In this document: piece by piece, positions 1 through 6,819 of the stretch
Layout of the letters: the number at the start of each line of letters is the position of its first letter
How positions within the stretch are numbered: the first letter of the stretch is position 1
Source of the DNA: a virus
Taxonomy: Duplodnaviria > Heunggongvirae > Uroviricota > Caudoviricetes
Virus record (IMG/VR): IMGVR_UViG_2706794683_000011
Length of the DNA: 6,967 nt
Strand: one strand, 5' to 3'
Position numbers and translations under genes: made by a program
Notes under the pieces: generated by a model
The model's database searches: none
The model's input: only the letters and a program-made list of their open reading frames with translations
What the model was told of the DNA's origin: nothing

Positions 1-107
1 GGCTGGGACGGAAGTCGCTGTCGTTCTCAAAATCGGTGGAGCTGCATGACAAAGTCATCGGGCATTATCTGAACATAAAACACTATCAATAAGTTGGAGT
101 CATTACC
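1..107 (+). mobile_element. IS1 right-end fragment (last 107 bp of IS1 including the right terminal inverted repeat; rest of element lies beyond window start)
   Basis: Bases 1..107 match the last 107 bp of the complete IS1 at 6195..6301 except one base (pos 4 t versus a at 6198) and end in the IS1 terminus ATCAATAAGTTGGAGTCATTACC. Confidence 0.95.
3..92 (+). CDS. insB: IS1 transposase InsB, C-terminal 29 codons only (5' part outside window)
   Basis: Frame translates [29 protein letters not shown] then stop; same as the C-terminus of the 167-aa insB ORF at 5783..6286 except L here where the internal copy has Q. Confidence 0.85.
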   Translation: MGRKSLSFSKSVELHDKVIGHYLNIKHYQ

Positions 108-497
108 CCAATTTTTTACGTACGTAAACCACTAAATGATATTTGCGAGAATGCTACCGAGTATTGAAAACACCACTACAAATACATAAGCAAATCCCAA
201 CAAATAACCAACAAATAATTTCCAGTGTTATTTTTAGCCGGTTTAAATTGAACCTTCAAATTATAGAGCACTTATAAATAACAGCCGTTAATATAAATTG
301 GCTAATAGATTTATTTTTATTCAGTCAAGAGCCATGAATAGGATTCGATAGAAAAAAGTTCAGATAAAAATAGAGATCTACTTCACAAATCAAACGAGAA
401 ACCAAAACTTACATCTTGAAATAATCACATTGATTAGATGAATATTTATCGCGCAATGACATCATTTTTTAATAATAGTTCAAAAAAAGGGCTCACG

Positions 498-1580
498 ATG
501 AAAAAATTAACAGTGGCAATTTCTGCTGTAGCTGCATCAGTACTGATGGCGATGTCTGCTCAGGCAGCTGAAATTTATAATAAAGACAGTAACAAGCTGG
601 ATCTGTACGGGAAAGTTAATGCTAAGCACTACTTCTCCTCTAATGATGCAGATGATGGTGATACTACTTATGCCCGTCTTGGCTTCAAAGGTGAAACCCA
701 AATCAACGATCAACTGACTGGTTTCGGTCAGTGGGAATATGAATTCAAAGGCAACCGCGCTGAATCTCAAGGTTCCTCCAAAGATAAAACCCGTCTTGCC
801 TTCGCTGGCCTGAAATTCGGTGACTACGGCTCCATCGATTACGGCCGTAACTACGGTGTAGCATACGACATCGGTGCGTGGACTGACGTCCTGCCAGAAT
901 TCGGTGGTGACACTTGGACTCAAACAGATGTGTTCATGACTGGTCGCACCACTGGTGTTGCAACTTATCGTAACAACGACTTCTTTGGTCTGGTTGATGG
1001 TCTGAACTTTGCTGCTCAGTATCAGGGTAAAAATGACCGCACTGACGTAACTGAAGCTAATGGTGATGGTTTCGGTTTCTCCACTACTTATGAGTATGAA
1101 GGATTCGGTGTAGGTGCAACCTATGCTAAATCTGACCGCACTAATAATCAGGTTATCTACGGTAACAACAGCCTGAATGCATCTGGTCAAAATGCTGAAG
1201 TATGGGCAGCTGGTCTGAAATATGATGCGAACAACATCTATCTGGCTACCACCTATTCTGAAACCCAGAACATGACTGTTTTTGGTAATAACCATATTGC
1301 CAACAAAGCACAAAACTTCGAAGTAGTTGCACAATATCAGTTCGACTTCGGTCTGCGTCCGTCCGTTGCTTACCTGCAATCTAAAGGAAAAGACTTGGGT
1401 GCGTGGGGTGATCAGGACCTGGTTGAATATATTGATGTAGGTGCAACCTATTACTTCAACAAAAATATGTCCACTTTTGTTGATTACAAAATCAACCTGA
1501 TTGATAAGAGCGATTTCACGAAAGCATCTGGCGTTGCTACCGATGATATCGTTGCTGTAGGTATGGTTTACCAGTTCTAA
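498..1580 (+). CDS. nmpC: Outer-membrane general porin, OmpC/OmpF/PhoE family, prophage-associated NmpC type (360 aa precursor)
   Basis: Translation starts [39 protein letters not shown]: a typical signal peptide with AQA cleavage site followed by the conserved porin N-terminus. Contains porin hallmarks ([34 protein letters not shown]) and ends in the C-terminal beta-barrel signal VYQF. SD-like AAAGGG precedes ATG 498. The ORF-track start at 438 adds 20 residues ahead of the signal peptide and is probably not used. Assignment by recall of NmpC/OmpF sequences. Confidence 0.9.
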
Positions 1581-1717
1581 TTTGATTACTAAAAGATATG
1601 TTGCGGGAGGCTTTGCCTCCCCAACATATAAGTGGCTCCCTCAAGCCACTTCCTTTAGGAGCACAACCTTGCTTCTAACTATATAAACCTTCTGTTATAT
1701 ATTACCCTTTATTTTTG

Positions 1718-1751
1718 GGGGCGTTGCAACGCCCCATTTTTAATAATTTTT
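1718..1751 (+). terminator. Candidate rho-independent terminator for nmpC (GC hairpin plus T tract)
   Basis: Perfect 18-bp palindrome GGGGCGTTGCAACGCCCC (1718..1735) followed immediately by ATTTTTAATAATTTTT. On the minus strand the hairpin is followed by A-rich sequence, so it is + strand specific. It lies 137 nt after the nmpC stop. Confidence 0.5.
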
Positions 1752-1768
1752 AGTAAACAATTGGCATA

Positions 1769-2152
1769 TTAATTAGAGTTATTAACAACGATATCCATCT
1801 CTAACCGGATATCTAATGCCATTAACATCCCTTCAATTATGCCCTCAGCCTTCTGTAACCTTTTCCCGATATAACCATCAGAGCAGCAATGCTTACCTGC
1901 CAGTGACATGAATGTCATACCGACTACATAATAATCTACTAATAAATCGTGCAAATCGCTGTTGTTCTTTTTCAGACGGGCCATGCACCCGCAAATAATC
2001 ATCGCGTCATCGTCACAACATTGCGGGCGAGATTTTACTTTTGAAGTAATTAATCCCTTAAAACCGGCGGCAATGGACGACCAGGTCACATCTTCATGAT
2101 TATTAGCCGCCCACGCTCCCCAACGCTCAAGAACCATCTGAATATCACGCAT
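1769..2152 (-). CDS. quuD: Prophage late-gene antitermination protein Q homolog (127 aa)
   Basis: Translation [34 protein letters not shown]...[16 protein letters not shown]... matches the DLP12 QuuD (YbcQ) type as I recall it. GGAG lies 7 nt before ATG 2152. The ORF-track start at 2167 is a TTG five codons upstream and probably not the real start. Position after rusA/ylcG fits lambdoid synteny. Confidence 0.85.
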
Positions 2153-2237
2153 CAACTTACTCCACAAAAATCAGACCAGAACGCCAATTACAAGCAAAAA
2201 TCAACAAAACAGTATTAGTTGATTGTTATCTCTGACT

Positions 2238-2378
2238 TCATACTCCTGCTCCTGTCAGGGTTTTGGCGTAATTCTTCAGTATTCGGTAATCGGTCAAAAC
2301 AGAACCGGGGAAACGATATAAGCGCAGATGCCCCCAGCGGTGGCGAAGAAGTTCTGCCATATAAAACTCAAACATCAT
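2238..2378 (-). CDS. ylcG: Small prophage protein between rusA and Q (46 aa), YlcG-like
   Basis: Minus-strand ORF ATGATGTTTGAG... translating [46 protein letters not shown] then stop. Its ATG overlaps the rusA stop (ATGA). Below the ORF-track size cut-off, found by hand translation. Name from size and synteny plus partial recall of the sequence. Confidence 0.55.
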
Positions 2379-2737
2379 TCATTCCCCATTTCGGTGATGG
2401 TCAGTTCCAGCCTCCCACCTTTGGTAACAGGCATCTTCACAACGCGGTAATCAACGACCTGAGCATCATCCAGCCAGAAACCTGCTTTGGTGAGTGCGTC
2501 AAAAGCGGCTTTTTGCAGATTATCCAGGTCACGGCGACGGCGATCCGGCATGTGGCACTCAATACGGATTTTCACTGGCATAGCCAGGCCGATATCCAGC
2601 ATTGCGTTTTTAATGATTCGGGTGACGTTATCGCGGTATGCCTGCCCTTCTGCGCTGATGTGTGTGCGCCCGCGATTATGGCGGTAATAGCGGTTATTGC
2701 TCGGAGGCCAGGGTAATGTGATGCTGTAGGTATTCAC
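2375..2737 (-). CDS. rusA: Holliday-junction resolvase RusA (120 aa)
   Basis: Translation [38 protein letters not shown]...[39 protein letters not shown]... is the RusA endonuclease sequence as recalled. Start codon is GTG (in-frame TAA two codons upstream), preceded by GAGGGGG, and overlaps the ybcO stop as GTGA. Confidence 0.9.
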
Positions 2738-3024
2738 GCCTTAATAACCCCCTCTTTCAGCCAGATAACCTGCGTTCTCGCCATACCTTCCAGCGCGCAT
2801 TCTTTTGCATACTCAGCATCGACAAAATATGTGCGGCGGTCGATTTCGTCGTGACAGGCAGAACATGCAATGGTGGCAATCAGGTCTGGCGGTTTGATAC
2901 CGGTACCGCACAATCCAGCCAGCCGGATATGTGCCAGTACTGACGTTTCAGGATTGCCATTACATACGCCAGGGATTCTTACCTGGCATTCCCGACCACG
3001 CGCTGCTTTTCTCAAATCAGCCAT
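2734..3024 (-). CDS. ybcO: Prophage Cys-rich protein YbcO (DUF1364-type putative nuclease, 96 aa)
   Basis: Translation [64 protein letters not shown]... Strong SD GGAGG lies 5 nt before ATG 3024. The ORF-track start at 3063 adds 13 residues with no SD. Lambdoid nin-region synteny. Confidence 0.85.
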
Positions 3025-3187
3025 GATTCCTCCTTGCTGCCAGTCGCAACCATTTTTTATCAACCAGGCTAGCGGTATATCCGAGCAGTGTTGGTATTTC
3101 GGATGGCTTCAGCTCAGGCTTACGCTTACGACGATTTGATACTCTGTAGATGTGCCCGTTCATGACACGAATAAGCGGTGTAGCCAT
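3017..3187 (-). CDS. ninE: NinE-family small protein (56 aa)
   Basis: Hand translation of minus strand gives [56 protein letters not shown] then stop, which matches lambda-type NinE as recalled. Its ATG overlaps the ybcN stop (TAATG) and its stop overlaps the ybcO start (ATGGCTGA). Missing from the ORF track because of size. Confidence 0.8.
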   Translation of the reverse strand: MATPLIRVMNGHIYRVSNRRKRKPELKPSEIPTLLGYTASLVDKKWLRLAARRNHG

Positions 3188-3642
3188 TACGCCTCCTGCT
3201 TATCGCGCAGCTGCTGGTATTCACAGCTCTGCGGAATTGTCAGGTGGCAGCCGATATTCATCGCCCAGGCTTCGACTTTGCACAGGAAGATGTACATCTC
3301 GCCGGTTTCCAGCTCTGACGTATGGCGGAGGGATTGGACGGTGGTGACCTCGCCGGACACGACATCTACACGGTCTTTGCTTTCGTAGCCGAGATAGGTG
3401 TGCTTCATCGCGTCTTTGACCCACTCAGGCGTAGCGAAGGTCTTGCCGCGGGCGATGAGATATTCGCTGATCTCCGTGTACCACATGTGGCTGAGCGCGT
3501 TCTGCGACAGGCTGCGCTTCTCGCGCCACGGCTTAACCTGCAGGCGTAAGCATTGCCCGGCATCCAGCAATGGCTGAATCTGCTGGCCGATGGCCGCGAA
3601 GTTACCGCGATGGAGTTTGATGCCGTCTACTGGCAGAGTCAT
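3187..3642 (-). CDS. ybcN: NinB/YbcN-family prophage protein (151 aa)
   Basis: Translation MTLPVDGIKLHRGNFAAIGQQIQPLLDAGQCLRLQVKPWREKRSLSQNALSHMWYTEISEYL... recalled as DLP12 YbcN (NinB-like, R.LSQN motif). SD GGGAGG lies before ATG 3642. Confidence 0.85.
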   Translation of the reverse strand: MTLPVDGIKLHRGNFAAIGQQIQPLLDAGQCLRLQVKPWREKRSLSQNALSHMWYTEISEYLIARGKTFATPEWVKDAMKHTYLGYESKDRVDVVSGEVTTVQSLRHTSELETGEMYIFLCKVEAWAMNIGCHLTIPQSCEYQQLRDKQEA

Positions 3643-3734
3643 ACGGCCTCCCTAACGGAAACCGCAGAATGCAGAAAATCGCAGGTGCATTTCTGCATCT
3701 GTGACAAGGTGATGAGTTCAGATTGTGGTCGCAT
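3639..3734 (-). CDS. Small ORF (31 aa) immediately upstream of and translationally coupled to ybcN; occupies the ylcH position of DLP12
   Basis: Minus-strand ATG 3734 follows an in-frame TAA and the SD AAGGGGA. Translation is MRPQSELITLSQMQKCTCDFLHSAVSVREAV; its TGA overlaps the ybcN ATG (GTATGACT). Sequence not recognised from memory, so called on position and coupling only. Confidence 0.4.
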   Translation of the reverse strand: MRPQSELITLSQMQKCTCDFLHSAVSVREAV

Positions 3735-3906
3735 TTAAGTCCCCTTAAATGCGCAGAAGTCACCGGAGTTGTTCAGGCTCCGATGAGAGGATTATGGCGG
3801 ATTGATTACGATAAATCAAAACTATCTTGAAGCCAAAACAGTGATCTTCGCTTTAAAAACCTTGTATACTTTCACCTAATCACAGCCAGAACTATGGATC
3901 TAACCA

Positions 3907-4284
3907 ATGACCAACAAAGAAAACAAAGATAAATATATTAACAAGTTCAAGAAAGAGCTTTCAAAATATATACAACCAACTGCTGGAGTGGACATTCAAT
4001 TATTTAACTCTAAGGATGGTGGTGGTGTAATTAAAGCCACTTTGAATAGAAGTGGAAAAAGAAAATCATCTATTGCTGGTAATTTTACTAAATTAGGTGA
4101 GGCAATTACCTCGAGTGGGCAGAGGGTTTTTGGTGGTGATCTATCAAATGTGAATTTTTACGGAACAAATACGATTTTTGATGGAGATACAATATTTTTA
4201 ATTAAATCACCTGATTCAGAGGAGTGGTCATCACAAAAAGCTTCCAAAGACGTAGAGGGCATCGTATTTGGAGGGAAAAAATGA
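3907..4284 (+). CDS. Hypothetical soluble protein (125 aa), AT-rich cargo gene, no family assigned
   Basis: Clean ORF: ATG 3907 directly follows an in-frame TAA. Lys-rich N-terminus MTNKENKDKYINKFKKELSKY, Gly-rich segments GGGVIKATLNRSGKRK and QRVFGGDLSNVNFYGTNTIFDGDTIFLI, C-terminus IVFGGKK. No signal peptide or hydrophobic helix. No clear SD. G+C visibly lower than flanking prophage genes. Confidence 0.55.
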   Translation: MTNKENKDKYINKFKKELSKYIQPTAGVDIQLFNSKDGGGVIKATLNRSGKRKSSIAGNFTKLGEAITSSGQRVFGGDLSNVNFYGTNTIFDGDTIFLIKSPDSEEWSSQKASKDVEGIVFGGKK

Positions 4285-4366
4285 TTAACATTACTACTAA
4301 GGATGCACTCAAGTCAGTGGTGAAGTAAGAGATCTAGTAATTCTTCTTGAAACTGATGGAAAAACG

Positions 4367-4708
4367 GTGTCTGATTATTTGCAGCCAATCCCTCCCAAAA
4401 AAGATACACACTGGAGCATGATTTTCATTCCGGTAGCAATTTATATACTACTTAATCTTGTATACATTATTGCTCACCCATTATTTCCTGAAAAATATCT
4501 AAAAACATCAACATCTATATTTCTATTCATTTCCTTCATATTAAGTGCAATAGTAGCATATTTTGTTTTCCATAAGCATAAATCTGCCACTCTATCCATA
4601 TGCAGCTTAGTGTTCTTAGTGTTAATTGTAGGTGCTAACGTAGGGTTTATCAGTTACAGCGACCTAACACAAAAAGCGACGCAAAAATTAGATAGTTTGT
4701 CTAAATAA
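4367..4708 (+). CDS. Hypothetical small integral membrane protein, three predicted TM helices (113 aa from GTG 4367, or 96 aa from ATG 4418)
   Basis: Three hydrophobic stretches (IFIPVAIYILLNLVYIIA, IFLFISFILSAIVAYFVF, LSICSLVFLVLIVGANVGFI) followed by a charged tail SYSDLTQKATQKLDSLSK. Frame is open from 4301. The first canonical start is GTG 4367 (weak SD); ATG 4418 has GGAG only 1 nt upstream. Start is therefore uncertain. Confidence 0.5.
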   Translation: MSDYLQPIPPKKDTHWSMIFIPVAIYILLNLVYIIAHPLFPEKYLKTSTSIFLFISFILSAIVAYFVFHKHKSATLSICSLVFLVLIVGANVGFISYSDLTQKATQKLDSLSK

Positions 4709-4815
4709 TTATGTTGCCATGCGAAGTATGCATGGCTGCATGTCTGCCTTCCATTTAAAATGGGCTAAGACCTATAACCCTAAATATTATTCTTTATTAT
4801 CTTCTTTACCACTTC

Positions 4816-5046
4816 GGTGATGCTGCCAACTTACTGATTTAGTGTATGATGGTGTTTTTGAGGTGCTCCAGTGGCTTCTGTTTCTATCAGCTGTCCCTCC
4901 TGTTCAGCTACTGACGGGGTGGTGCGTAACGGCAAAAGCACTGCCGGACATCAGCGCTATCTCTGCTCTCACTGCCGTAAAACATGGCAACTGCAGTTCA
5001 CTTACACCGCTTCTCAACCCGGTACGCACCAGAAAATCATTGATAT
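4816..5046 (+). mobile_element. IS1 left-end fragment (first 231 bp: left inverted repeat and 5' part of insA), truncated by IS21-family sequence
   Basis: 4816..5046 is identical to 5534..5764 of the complete IS1 and begins with the IS1 terminus GGTGATGCTGCCAACTTACTGAT. Identity stops after ...CATTGATAT, where the complete copy continues GGCCATG and this copy continues TGTCAGCGCC. Confidence 0.9.
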
Positions 5047-5287
5047 TGTCAGCGCCAGTGATATAAGACGGTAATTCGCCATTTGGATTGTCCGCTCCAC
5101 CCAACATGTTGTTTCCTTAAGGTTCTCACACCAGAAAGGACATCAACATGCTGAGCAGAGAGGACTTTTACATGATAAAGCAAATGCACCAGCAGGGCGC
5201 GTACATCGTCGATATTGCGACTCAGATTGGTTGCTCTGAACGGACGGTCAGACGCTACCTCAAATACCCTGAACCGCCAGCCAGAAT
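5047..5287 (+). mobile_element. IS21-family element, left end with 5' part of istA (IS100/IS21-like); runs into assembly gap
   Basis: Sequence begins TGTCAGCGCCAGTG (TG... terminus typical of the IS21 family, from memory). About 100 bp further in, an ORF starts MLSREDFYMIKQMHQQGAYIVDIATQIGCSERTVRRYLKYPEPPAR, which I recognise as the helix-turn-helix N-terminus of IS21-family IstA transposases. Confidence 0.75.
5148..5287 (+). CDS. istA: IS21-family transposase IstA, N-terminal 46 codons (remainder in gap)
   Basis: See the IS21-family element above. The ORF-track extension 5148..5555 is translation through N bases and is not real. Confidence 0.75.
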
Positions 5288-5533
5288 NNNNNNNNNNNNN
5301 NNNNNNNNNNNNNNNNNNNNNNNNNNNNNNNNNNNNNNNNNNNNNNNNNNNNNNNNNNNNNNNNNNNNNNNNNNNNNNNNNNNNNNNNNNNNNNNNNNNN
5401 NNNNNNNNNNNNNNNNNNNNNNNNNNNNNNNNNNNNNNNNNNNNNNNNNNNNNNNNNNNNNNNNNNNNNNNNNNNNNNNNNNNNNNNNNNNNNNNNNNNN
5501 NNNNNNNNNNNNNNNNNNNNNNNNNNNNNNNNN
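5288..5533. other. Assembly gap (246 N)
   Basis: Uninterrupted run of n from 5288 to 5533. It is bounded on the left by IS21-family sequence and on the right by the first base of an IS1 copy. Confidence 0.99.
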
Positions 5534-5588
5534 GGTGATGCTGCCAACTTACTGATTTAGTGTATGATGGTGTTTTTGAGGTGCTCCA

Positions 5589-5864
5589 GTGGCTTCTGTT
5601 TCTATCAGCTGTCCCTCCTGTTCAGCTACTGACGGGGTGGTGCGTAACGGCAAAAGCACTGCCGGACATCAGCGCTATCTCTGCTCTCACTGCCGTAAAA
5701 CATGGCAACTGCAGTTCACTTACACCGCTTCTCAACCCGGTACGCACCAGAAAATCATTGATATGGCCATGAATGGCGTTGGATGCCGGGCAACTGCACG
5801 CATTATGGGCGTTGGCCTCAACACGATTTTACGTCACTTAAAAAACTCAGGCCGCAGTCGGTAA
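5589..5864 (+). CDS. insA: IS1 protein InsA (91 aa)
   Basis: Translation [91 protein letters not shown]. Confidence 0.92.
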
Positions 5865-6286
5865 CCTCGCGCATACAGCCGGGCAGTGACGTCATCGTCT
5901 GCGCGGAAATGGACGAACAGTGGGGCTATGTCGGGGCTAAATCGCGCCAGCGCTGGCTGTTTTACGCGTATGACAGTCTCCGGAAGACGGTTGTTGCGCA
6001 CGTATTCGGTGAACGCACTATGGCGACGCTGGGGCGTCTTATGAGCCTGCTGTCACCCTTTGACGTGGTGATATGGATGACGGATGGCTGGCCGCTGTAT
6101 GAATCCCGCCTGAAGGGAAAGCTGCACGTAATCAGCAAGCGATATACGCAGCGAATTGAGCGGCATAACCTGAATCTGAGGCAGCACCTGGCACGGCAGG
6201 GACGGAAGTCGCTGTCGTTCTCAAAATCGGTGGAGCTGCATGACAAAGTCATCGGGCATTATCTGAACATAAAACACTATCAATAA
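5783..6286 (+). CDS. insB: IS1 InsB ORF (167 aa; normally expressed as InsAB' fusion by -1 frameshift)
   Basis: Translation [53 protein letters not shown]...HYLNIKHYQ, in the -1 frame relative to insA. Confidence 0.92.
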
Positions 6287-6441
6287 GTTGGAGTCATTAC
6301 CCGATTATCCGACTTATTAAAAATGCCTGTTTAAAATTATATAATTTAGCACATACCGCAACCAACTCCCACCTTAAACCAACTGGTCCGGATAATTCAG
6401 ATGTTCTCCTGTTCAAAAAGCTATTCTCCCCTTCGAAATTA

Positions 6442-6819
6442 ATGACAATTATCGGTGATGAAATTCCTCTTATATCTGAAAAACAGTCGCTTTCAAAGGT
6501 GCTTTTAAATGATGAGAATAATGAACTGAGTGATGGTACAAACTTCTGGGATAAAAATCGTCAATTAACCACAGATGAAATAGCTTGCTATCTTCAGAAG
6601 ATCGCCGCTAATGCAAAAAATACTCAAGTCAATTATCCTACTGGTCTCTACGTCCCCTACTCCACCAGAACTCACCTGGAAGACGCTCTCAATGAAAATA
6701 TTAAGAGCGATCCATCATGGCCGAATGAAGTCCAGTTATTCCCCATAAATACTGGCGGACACTGGATATTAGTTTCGCTACAGAAAATAGTAAATAAAAA
6801 AATAATAAACTACAAATAA
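6442..6819 (+). CDS. AT-rich orphan ORF (125 aa from first ATG); probable remnant of a larger gene; motif pattern reminiscent of Ulp1/CE-clan cysteine peptidases (tentative)
   Basis: No SD before ATG 6442, and the reading frame is open without a stop from 6244 across the IS1 boundary (6301) into the ORF. Contains [20 protein letters not shown] and, about 70 residues later, [15 protein letters not shown]...KKIINY. This resembles the Ulp1 pattern W-LND...IFIPIN..SHWALGIID.KKKTIGY (catalytic His in the HW motif), but the ORF stops about where the catalytic Asp and Cys would follow. Confidence 0.45.

Follow-up and report, generated by a model that had tools for sequence, protein, structure and literature searches.

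An intact NmpC/Lc-type porin gene with a simple IS1 insertion in its upstream spacer in a DLP12-like defective prophage

The window, by which is meant the whole stretch of 6,967 nucleotides that was analysed, belongs to the tailed-phage record IMGVR_UViG_2706794683_000011 of IMG/VR. Its left part carries the end of an IS1 element, an AT-rich spacer, an outer-membrane porin gene with a structured 3'UTR, and a late antiterminator gene that converges on the porin. These features, with positions counted from the first letter of the window, are as follows.

1-107, plus strand: right end of IS1, comprising the last 30 insB codons (3-92, stop at 90-92) and the inverted repeat, which ends ...CATTACC at 107
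108-115: right-hand copy of the IS1 target-site duplication, 8 bp, CCAATTTT
108-497, plus strand: intergenic control region upstream of the porin, 390 bp, AT-rich (29.7% GC)
370-390: predicted proximal CRP/CAP site, AGAGA-N6-TCACA, centre ~379.5, transferred by alignment from positions 1363-1383 of the PA-2 lc record J02580
449-490, minus strand: putative lysis-cassette promoter of DLP12 type, sigma-E-like TGAACT-N16-TCATT, with +1 at 449
498-1580, plus strand: intact general porin gene of the NmpC/Lc family, 360 aa (a 23-aa signal peptide and a 337-aa mature protein)
511-517, plus strand: CAGTGGC, presumed complement of the RybB sRNA 5' seed, in porin codons 5-7
1581-1746, plus strand: structured 3'UTR of the porin, presumably the ipeX region of nmpC/lc, 166 nt, multi-hairpin
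1769-2152, minus strand: late antiterminator Q of quuD type, convergent with the porin, matching Phage_antitermQ over 1-118/118

The porin ORF is 1083 nt long, with a GC content of 44%. Its product begins with a 23-aa signal peptide followed by AEIYNK, identical to the signal peptide annotated in lc of phage PA-2, and direct reading of the sequence gives ...AVGMVYQF at the C-terminus, with the terminal Phe present. A Sec signal peptide and a C-terminal aromatic residue (Phe) are both required in outer-membrane assembly. The Pfam model Porin_1 is matched across its entire length (1-337/337, 510.6 bits), PHROG 410 covers residues 1-360/360, and the score of 518 bits against the NCBIfam 'porin OmpC' subfamily lies above the cutoff of 484. 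Residues 24-360 align with the full-length solved chains of OmpC, OmpK36 and PhoE at E ~1e-135, and the fold is predicted to be the 16-stranded OmpC/OmpF type, as in these solved relatives. The first-pass annotation had described the ORF as complete from signal peptide to C-terminal Phe, preceded by an IS1 end at 107 and a 390-bp AT-rich leader; the 360-aa length and the full-length Pfam and PHROG matches bear out the first point, and the coordinates of all three elements proved exact.

Alignment with nmpC of E. coli K-12 (IS5 removed) and its flanks recovered a homologous leader, a homologous 3'UTR and a protein identical at 329 of 360 positions (91.4%), the same figure as was obtained against Lc of PA-2. 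Across residues 1-148 the sequence agrees fully with K-12 NmpC and departs from PA-2 Lc at a single position. In the C-terminal half, the differences from the two proteins, two deletions of 3 aa and 2 aa among them, cluster within a few stretches, and by analogy with OmpC these stretches are probably surface loops. All of the defining features open to computation were found in window 498-1580, which by homology is an NmpC/Lc-type porin of a lambdoid prophage.

The position of the start codon was considered separately. An upstream ATG at 438 would open an ORF of 380 aa in the same frame. This start was rejected because its frame breaks in PA-2 and in two related E. coli prophage records (L001 and L009), all three of which have 8 A's before the ribosome-binding site vs 7 in the window. 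The annotated start of PA-2 lc is the equivalent of window 498. Shortly after this start, in codons 5-7, lies CAGTGGC, the only such site within window 1-1800, which was matched as the complement of what we take to be the RybB seed. The nmpC mRNA is a RybB target in E. coli, where nmpC has been treated as the counterpart of ompD (PMC3333887). On the opposite strand the porin CDS also contains an antisense ORF of 280 aa (537-1379, minus), for which there is no sign of a real gene and which probably arises from the codon composition of the porin.

The first-pass annotation had set the intact copy of this gene against the K-12 gene, given there as disrupted by IS5. The statement on K-12 is right, b0553 being annotated as a pseudogene split by IS5B, but intactness is nothing out of the ordinary. 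With a contiguous copy counted as one place covering at least 80% of the leader + CDS query, 2,451 of 5,426 complete E. coli genomes (~45%) carry leader and porin contiguously, and the same query is found in 36 phage records, viable temperate phages included. The exact 360-aa protein is indexed in 17,488 blocks of a public protein collection and lies on at least 1000 contigs, its names there including 'porin OmpC', 'porin OmpD [Shigella sonnei]' and 'outer membrane porin protein LC'. WP_000737275.1 of E. coli CE0021a has the same sequence. Since some 45% of complete E. coli genomes have the contiguous leader and porin, the intact copy is the norm and the IS5-disrupted copy of K-12 the exception. 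The porin allele, the module around it and nearby IS1 insertions are all already in the databases, and nothing here is new in kind.

Homology and gene order identify window 108-1768 as the usual NmpC/Lc porin module, carried by a defective lambdoid prophage of DLP12 type. The Q gene at 1769-2152 encodes a protein 78-81% identical to Q of Stx phages, and past it follow ylcG, rusA, ybcO and ybcN, the gene order of DLP12. The same slot, with the porin between quuD and essD on the opposite strand, is found in K-12 and in the records L001 and L004-L013. On the side of the porin away from quuD, in K-12 DLP12 and in the uninterrupted relatives (L001, L004, L009 and others), lie the lysis genes essD-rrrD-rzpD, which agrees with the earlier expectation that lysis genes should be found on the IS1 side of nmpC; the start codon of essD stands 183 bp beyond the equivalent of window 108 in the uninterrupted relatives. 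Neighbouring genes are frameshifted or truncated, and the early region of the prophage has already been lost on the other side. No tRNA genes were found by ARAGORN in the window. The host of the prophage is most likely Shigella sonnei, as judged from the S. sonnei names borne by exact matches to the porin and to the ElaD fragment at 6442-6819.

Two small genes in the same neighbourhood (3907-4284 and 4281-4708, plus strand; PHROGs 18061 and 16940) replace ybcL/ybcM. The second encodes a 142-aa membrane protein in L009, and in the window it is frameshifted by a 1-bp deletion near 4304.

Homology to Stx2 phage II was used to look for a promoter of pR' type in the stretch directly behind quuD (1581-1768, minus strand), and no homologous sequence was found there. 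The Q protein of Stx2 phage II is ~78% identical, and the sole shared stretch, 83 bp at 77%, is located at the IS1 target site. In L009 this stretch occupies 9549-9631, spanning the equivalent of window 108-129, and it matches the end of the Q gene of Stx2 phage II together with the downstream hairpin (E = 1e-12). It looks like a scar, as if the porin module had entered directly behind an ancestral Q gene.

The IS1 element at the left edge of the window could be placed precisely. Window 3-92 encodes the InsB C-terminus and ends as in the full InsB ORF at 5783-6286, the right inverted repeat ends ...AAGTTGGAGTCATTACC at 107, and the transposase gene is directed at the porin. Position 108 is precisely where homology to E. 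coli prophages that lack the interruption sets in, so that the junction in the window consists of AAGTTGGAGTCATTACC followed by CCAATTTTTTACG. The window starts inside IS1 with 107 bp visible, and the far side of the element is read from identical relatives. Window 1-5286 recurs with 100% identity in L005 (CP049179.1) and in the IMG/VR contig L018; a further IMG/VR contig, L019, shares window 1-270 at 100% and ends there. Other IS1 copies within L005 are also 100% identical to window 1-107. In all three records a complete 768-bp IS1 is flanked by the direct 8-bp duplication CCAATTTT. The arrangement in L005 is ...CATAACCAATTTT, then IS1, then CCAATTTTTTACG, and the uninterrupted L009 has a single CCAATTTT. 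Beyond IS1, in these closest relatives, the ORFs for the holin (71 aa), endolysin (165 aa) and spanin are intact.

The first-pass annotation had left two origins for this junction, an insertion or an IS-mediated deletion. Mapping against prophages that retain the lysis genes gave a simple insertion in L005, L018 and L019, so in these records the first origin stands and the second does not: deletion of the lysis genes was rejected for the identical relatives because of their target duplication and intact lysis ORFs. The IS1 beside the porin is thus read as a simple insertion that removed nothing. An exact search for the IS1-leader junction gave 0 matches in GTDB contigs taken at one genome per species and no true match in 5,426 complete E. 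coli genomes; the junction was found in the two IMG/VR contigs and, via an exact-protein look-up, in L005. As it is unmatched among the complete E. coli genomes and the GTDB species representatives, the junction marks one lineage.

It was also considered whether the porin module had moved as an IS1 composite transposon, given direct IS1 copies at 1-107 and from 4817 onward. This was rejected, as the left IS1 has its own duplication and the right one has none.

The 390-bp leader that IS1 adjoins has conserved counterparts in many E. coli prophages as well as in K-12 DLP12 and PA-2. It is near-identical to the leaders of PA-2 and K-12 and carries three lineage-specific substitutions that set it apart from all four relatives compared. 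Two CRP sites are annotated in the PA-2 GenBank record, and catabolite-sensitive control of lc in PA-2 has been published. The proximal site is retained on the porin side of IS1. The distal site (positions 1067-1087 of the PA-2 record) falls 14-34 bp past the junction and has been moved 776 bp further off by IS1; it is a weak match, TGTGA-N6-AACCA, that was annotated from sequence alone. A scan of both strands of the leader for consensus sigma-70 promoters found none, and promoter positions therefore rest on literature and annotation.

At the other end of the gene, the 166-nt 3'UTR (1581-1746) folds with an MFE of -61 kcal/mol (z = -8.0) and ends in an intrinsic terminator, with a stem at 1718-1735 followed by a T-run. 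In the alignment it departs from K-12 and PA-2 at no more than a handful of positions. An Rfam scan of the whole window at E<=1 gave no matches, so the 3'UTR falls in no curated family. It probably corresponds to the part of nmpC/lc reportedly named ipeX (Castillo-Keller et al. 2006). IpeX has been listed among the sRNAs that target ompC (PMC5745476).

The same leader probably also holds the promoter of the lysis cassette on its other strand, a position derived from published primer coordinates. In the relevant passages of PMC7918800, which cite Rueggeberg et al. 2015, the DLP12 lysis-cassette reporter amplicon is given as -121..+650, and the cassette is reported to be under RpoE and Q control. 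The forward primer of this reporter maps to window 551-570, within the signal-peptide codons of the porin, and the K-12 amplicon is ~771 bp long; taken together, these two values would put the +1 of the lysis cassette on the minus strand, at the position matching window 449, a start site measured in K-12 whose coordinates come by secondary citation. The sigma-E-like element TGAACT-N16-TCATT found there agrees with the reported RpoE and Q control, and the window carries a G-to-A change (plus strand) inside its -10-like part. In uninterrupted relatives the transcript from this start would run antisense across the porin leader for ~380 nt to an intrinsic terminator (9572-9551 of L009, minus strand), which is located ~124 bp upstream of essD and lies past IS1, outside the window. 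Such an order of promoter, terminator and lysis genes is the kind of layout on which Q antiterminator action would be expected.

IS1 sits at about +342 of this predicted transcript, upstream of both its terminator and essD. Because the leader probably carries the lysis promoter, any consequence of IS1 is likelier to fall on the lysis genes than on the porin, and if the cited start is right the element would more likely act on the lysis cassette through polarity. Polarity on the lysis genes is not certain, because Q-modified RNA polymerase may read through IS1.

The explanation that best fits these observations, and in which confidence is high, is the porin module of a DLP12-like defective prophage that has received a single simple IS1 insertion, with the porin unaltered and the lysis genes the likelier to be affected. 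A single IS1 would have transposed into the porin-essD spacer at a point 390 bp before the porin ATG, with duplication of 8 bp, and the gene would have kept its coding sequence, proximal control DNA and 3'UTR unaltered; the porin would therefore be expected to be regulated as in other carriers of the allele. On its other side, the element would put 776 bp of polar DNA between the late promoter and the lysis genes. Within this explanation we infer the promoter positions, the polarity on the lysis genes and the expression of the porin. A variant that is possible, though doubtful, treats IS1 as a neutral passenger with respect to both strands: drift would have fixed it in a prophage already in decay, within a Shigella genome where IS elements have expanded. 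The four IS1 copies or fragments in 7 kb, together with an IS21-family element, the loss of the early region, the frameshifted or truncated neighbouring genes, and the restriction of the junction to one lineage, with its absence from the 5,426 complete E. coli genomes, are all in keeping with drift. The anatomy is equally consistent with it, and it differs from the favoured explanation only in denying a polar effect on the lysis cassette. A further reading, which we consider unlikely as a whole, makes the leader a face-to-face control region in which the porin promoter would fire rightward and a Q-/sigma-E-dependent lysis promoter leftward from ~449. IS1 would then uncouple the lysis genes from their promoter while sparing the porin and its ipeX 3'UTR, and would have been retained for that effect, domesticating the porin module in the S. 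sonnei lineage.

Two further alternatives concern the porin itself. That IS1 alters its expression, up or down, through displaced upstream DNA or through insAB read-through into the leader, is very unlikely. Silenced operons, bgl among them, are known to be activated by IS1 and IS5 insertions, insB points toward the porin, and the distal CRP site of the PA-2 record has been moved 776 bp away; a leader of 29.7% GC also has the low GC typical of H-NS targets, and possible H-NS nucleation sequences would have been displaced. However, the proximal CRP site and all 390 bp before the ATG are retained with near-identity to PA-2 and K-12, the IS1 junction brings no new sigma-70-like promoter, and the distal 'CRP site' that was displaced is a weak match annotated from sequence alone. 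No outward promoter is known at the right end of IS1. It is also rather unlikely that the porin is silent or non-functional in spite of its intact ORF, as a quiescent prophage gene. The title of Prilipov et al. 1998 calls nmpC of E. coli B a 'quiescent' porin gene, so that an intact ORF need not mean expression; the sigma-70 scan of the leader gave no consensus promoter, and convergent transcription from the predicted lysis promoter would overlap the 5' region of the porin. Against silence, nmpC transcripts of S. flexneri have been detected and are induced anaerobically in an FNR-dependent manner (PMC4229854), and patient sera react more strongly with S. flexneri NmpC in early convalescence than in the acute phase (PMC7809897). 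The exact allele is moreover undisrupted across thousands of genomes, and its substitutions are clustered rather than evenly spread, which would speak for a working protein on the assumption that the clusters are surface loops under selection.

Comparison with known systems places the window closest to NmpC of K-12 DLP12 (qsr'). The porin occupies the same quuD-essD slot on the opposite strand, window 108-1522 has 91.8% DNA identity to the K-12 locus, and the homologous 390-bp leader and the 3'UTR accompany the 91.4% identity in protein. The K-12 gene is a pseudogene, interrupted by IS5B near codon 346, unlike the intact copy in the window; the window allele is 5 residues shorter than K-12 NmpC owing to the 3-aa and 2-aa deletions, and the window has IS1 in its porin-essD spacer. 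Lc (protein 2) of PA-2 is equally close, with 91.4% identity and the same signal peptide, leader, proximal CRP annotation and downstream UTR. PA-2 is, however, a viable phage whose lc is expressed from the lysogen, whereas the prophage in the window is defective and riddled with IS elements, and IS1 separates the distal CRP site from the porin in the window, unlike in PA-2. OmpD of Salmonella and OmpC of enterobacteria share the Porin_1 fold family, which is reflected in the names of the protein ('porin OmpC' in PGAP, 'OmpD' in some records). The likeness to OmpD is one of family and names, and both are core chromosomal genes, unlike the prophage-borne porin of the window. The IS1 resembles the simple insertions known from gal and lac in its length of 768 bp, its canonical terminal repeats, its insA and insB genes and its AT-rich target. 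It differs in a duplication of 8 bp vs the more usual 9 bp; the gal and lac insertions are polar, and polarity here is the predicted component.

The locus matters little beyond annotation: E. coli and Shigella genomes by the thousand already have this allele, and research on the family goes back decades. What is gained is that the IS1 is to be read as an insertion and not a deletion, and that intact copies are the norm and K-12 the exception. As the porin-essD spacer probably holds both control regions, an IS element found there should be read for its bearing on both transcription units. Should S. sonnei express the porin, the cell would gain a surface antigen and a further general porin, and S. 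flexneri NmpC has been tried as a vaccine antigen. The earlier suggestion that an expressed extra porin would alter permeability and the receptor profile is reasonable but generic.

The rest of the window contains further IS1 sequence, the four copies or fragments lying at 1-107, 4817-5046, 5534-6302 and 6853-6967. The IS1 at 4817 (within 4817-5533) has no target duplication in L005 and replaces the phage P/O replication region; it is therefore on the early-gene side, and not on the lysis side, that IS-mediated loss of phage DNA would have occurred, and the copy at 4817 is read as marking a rearrangement. This IS1 is itself interrupted after 230 bp by the IS21-family element, which runs into a block of N at 5288-5533. 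Past the N block (5534-6967) the layout differs from L005. A fragment of an ElaD/SseL deubiquitinase gene (6442-6819) lies there between a complete IS1 (5534-6302) and an inverted IS1 end (6853-6967); the gene fragment corresponds to about residues 115-238 of 343 and has an exact copy on 290 contigs, named S. sonnei.

IS1 has also been found at the porin in other strains. In E. coli JNEC-KY204 (record L002, 5444-6212), an independent IS1 lies in the signal-peptide codons of the porin, at the equivalent of window 543-551, with a 9-bp duplication, and the gene is disrupted. Other E. coli matches of the same search likewise carry IS1 near the porin gene, and the porin region may have been hit by IS1 repeatedly. 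In E. coli W (NC_017635.1, record L020, 2501-2879), the leader and the first ~40 bp of the CDS (window 161-538) are present at 82% identity with no porin behind them, adjoining ybcM-ybcL-emrE near yedK; this copy of the leader looks like a remnant of a second porin locus.
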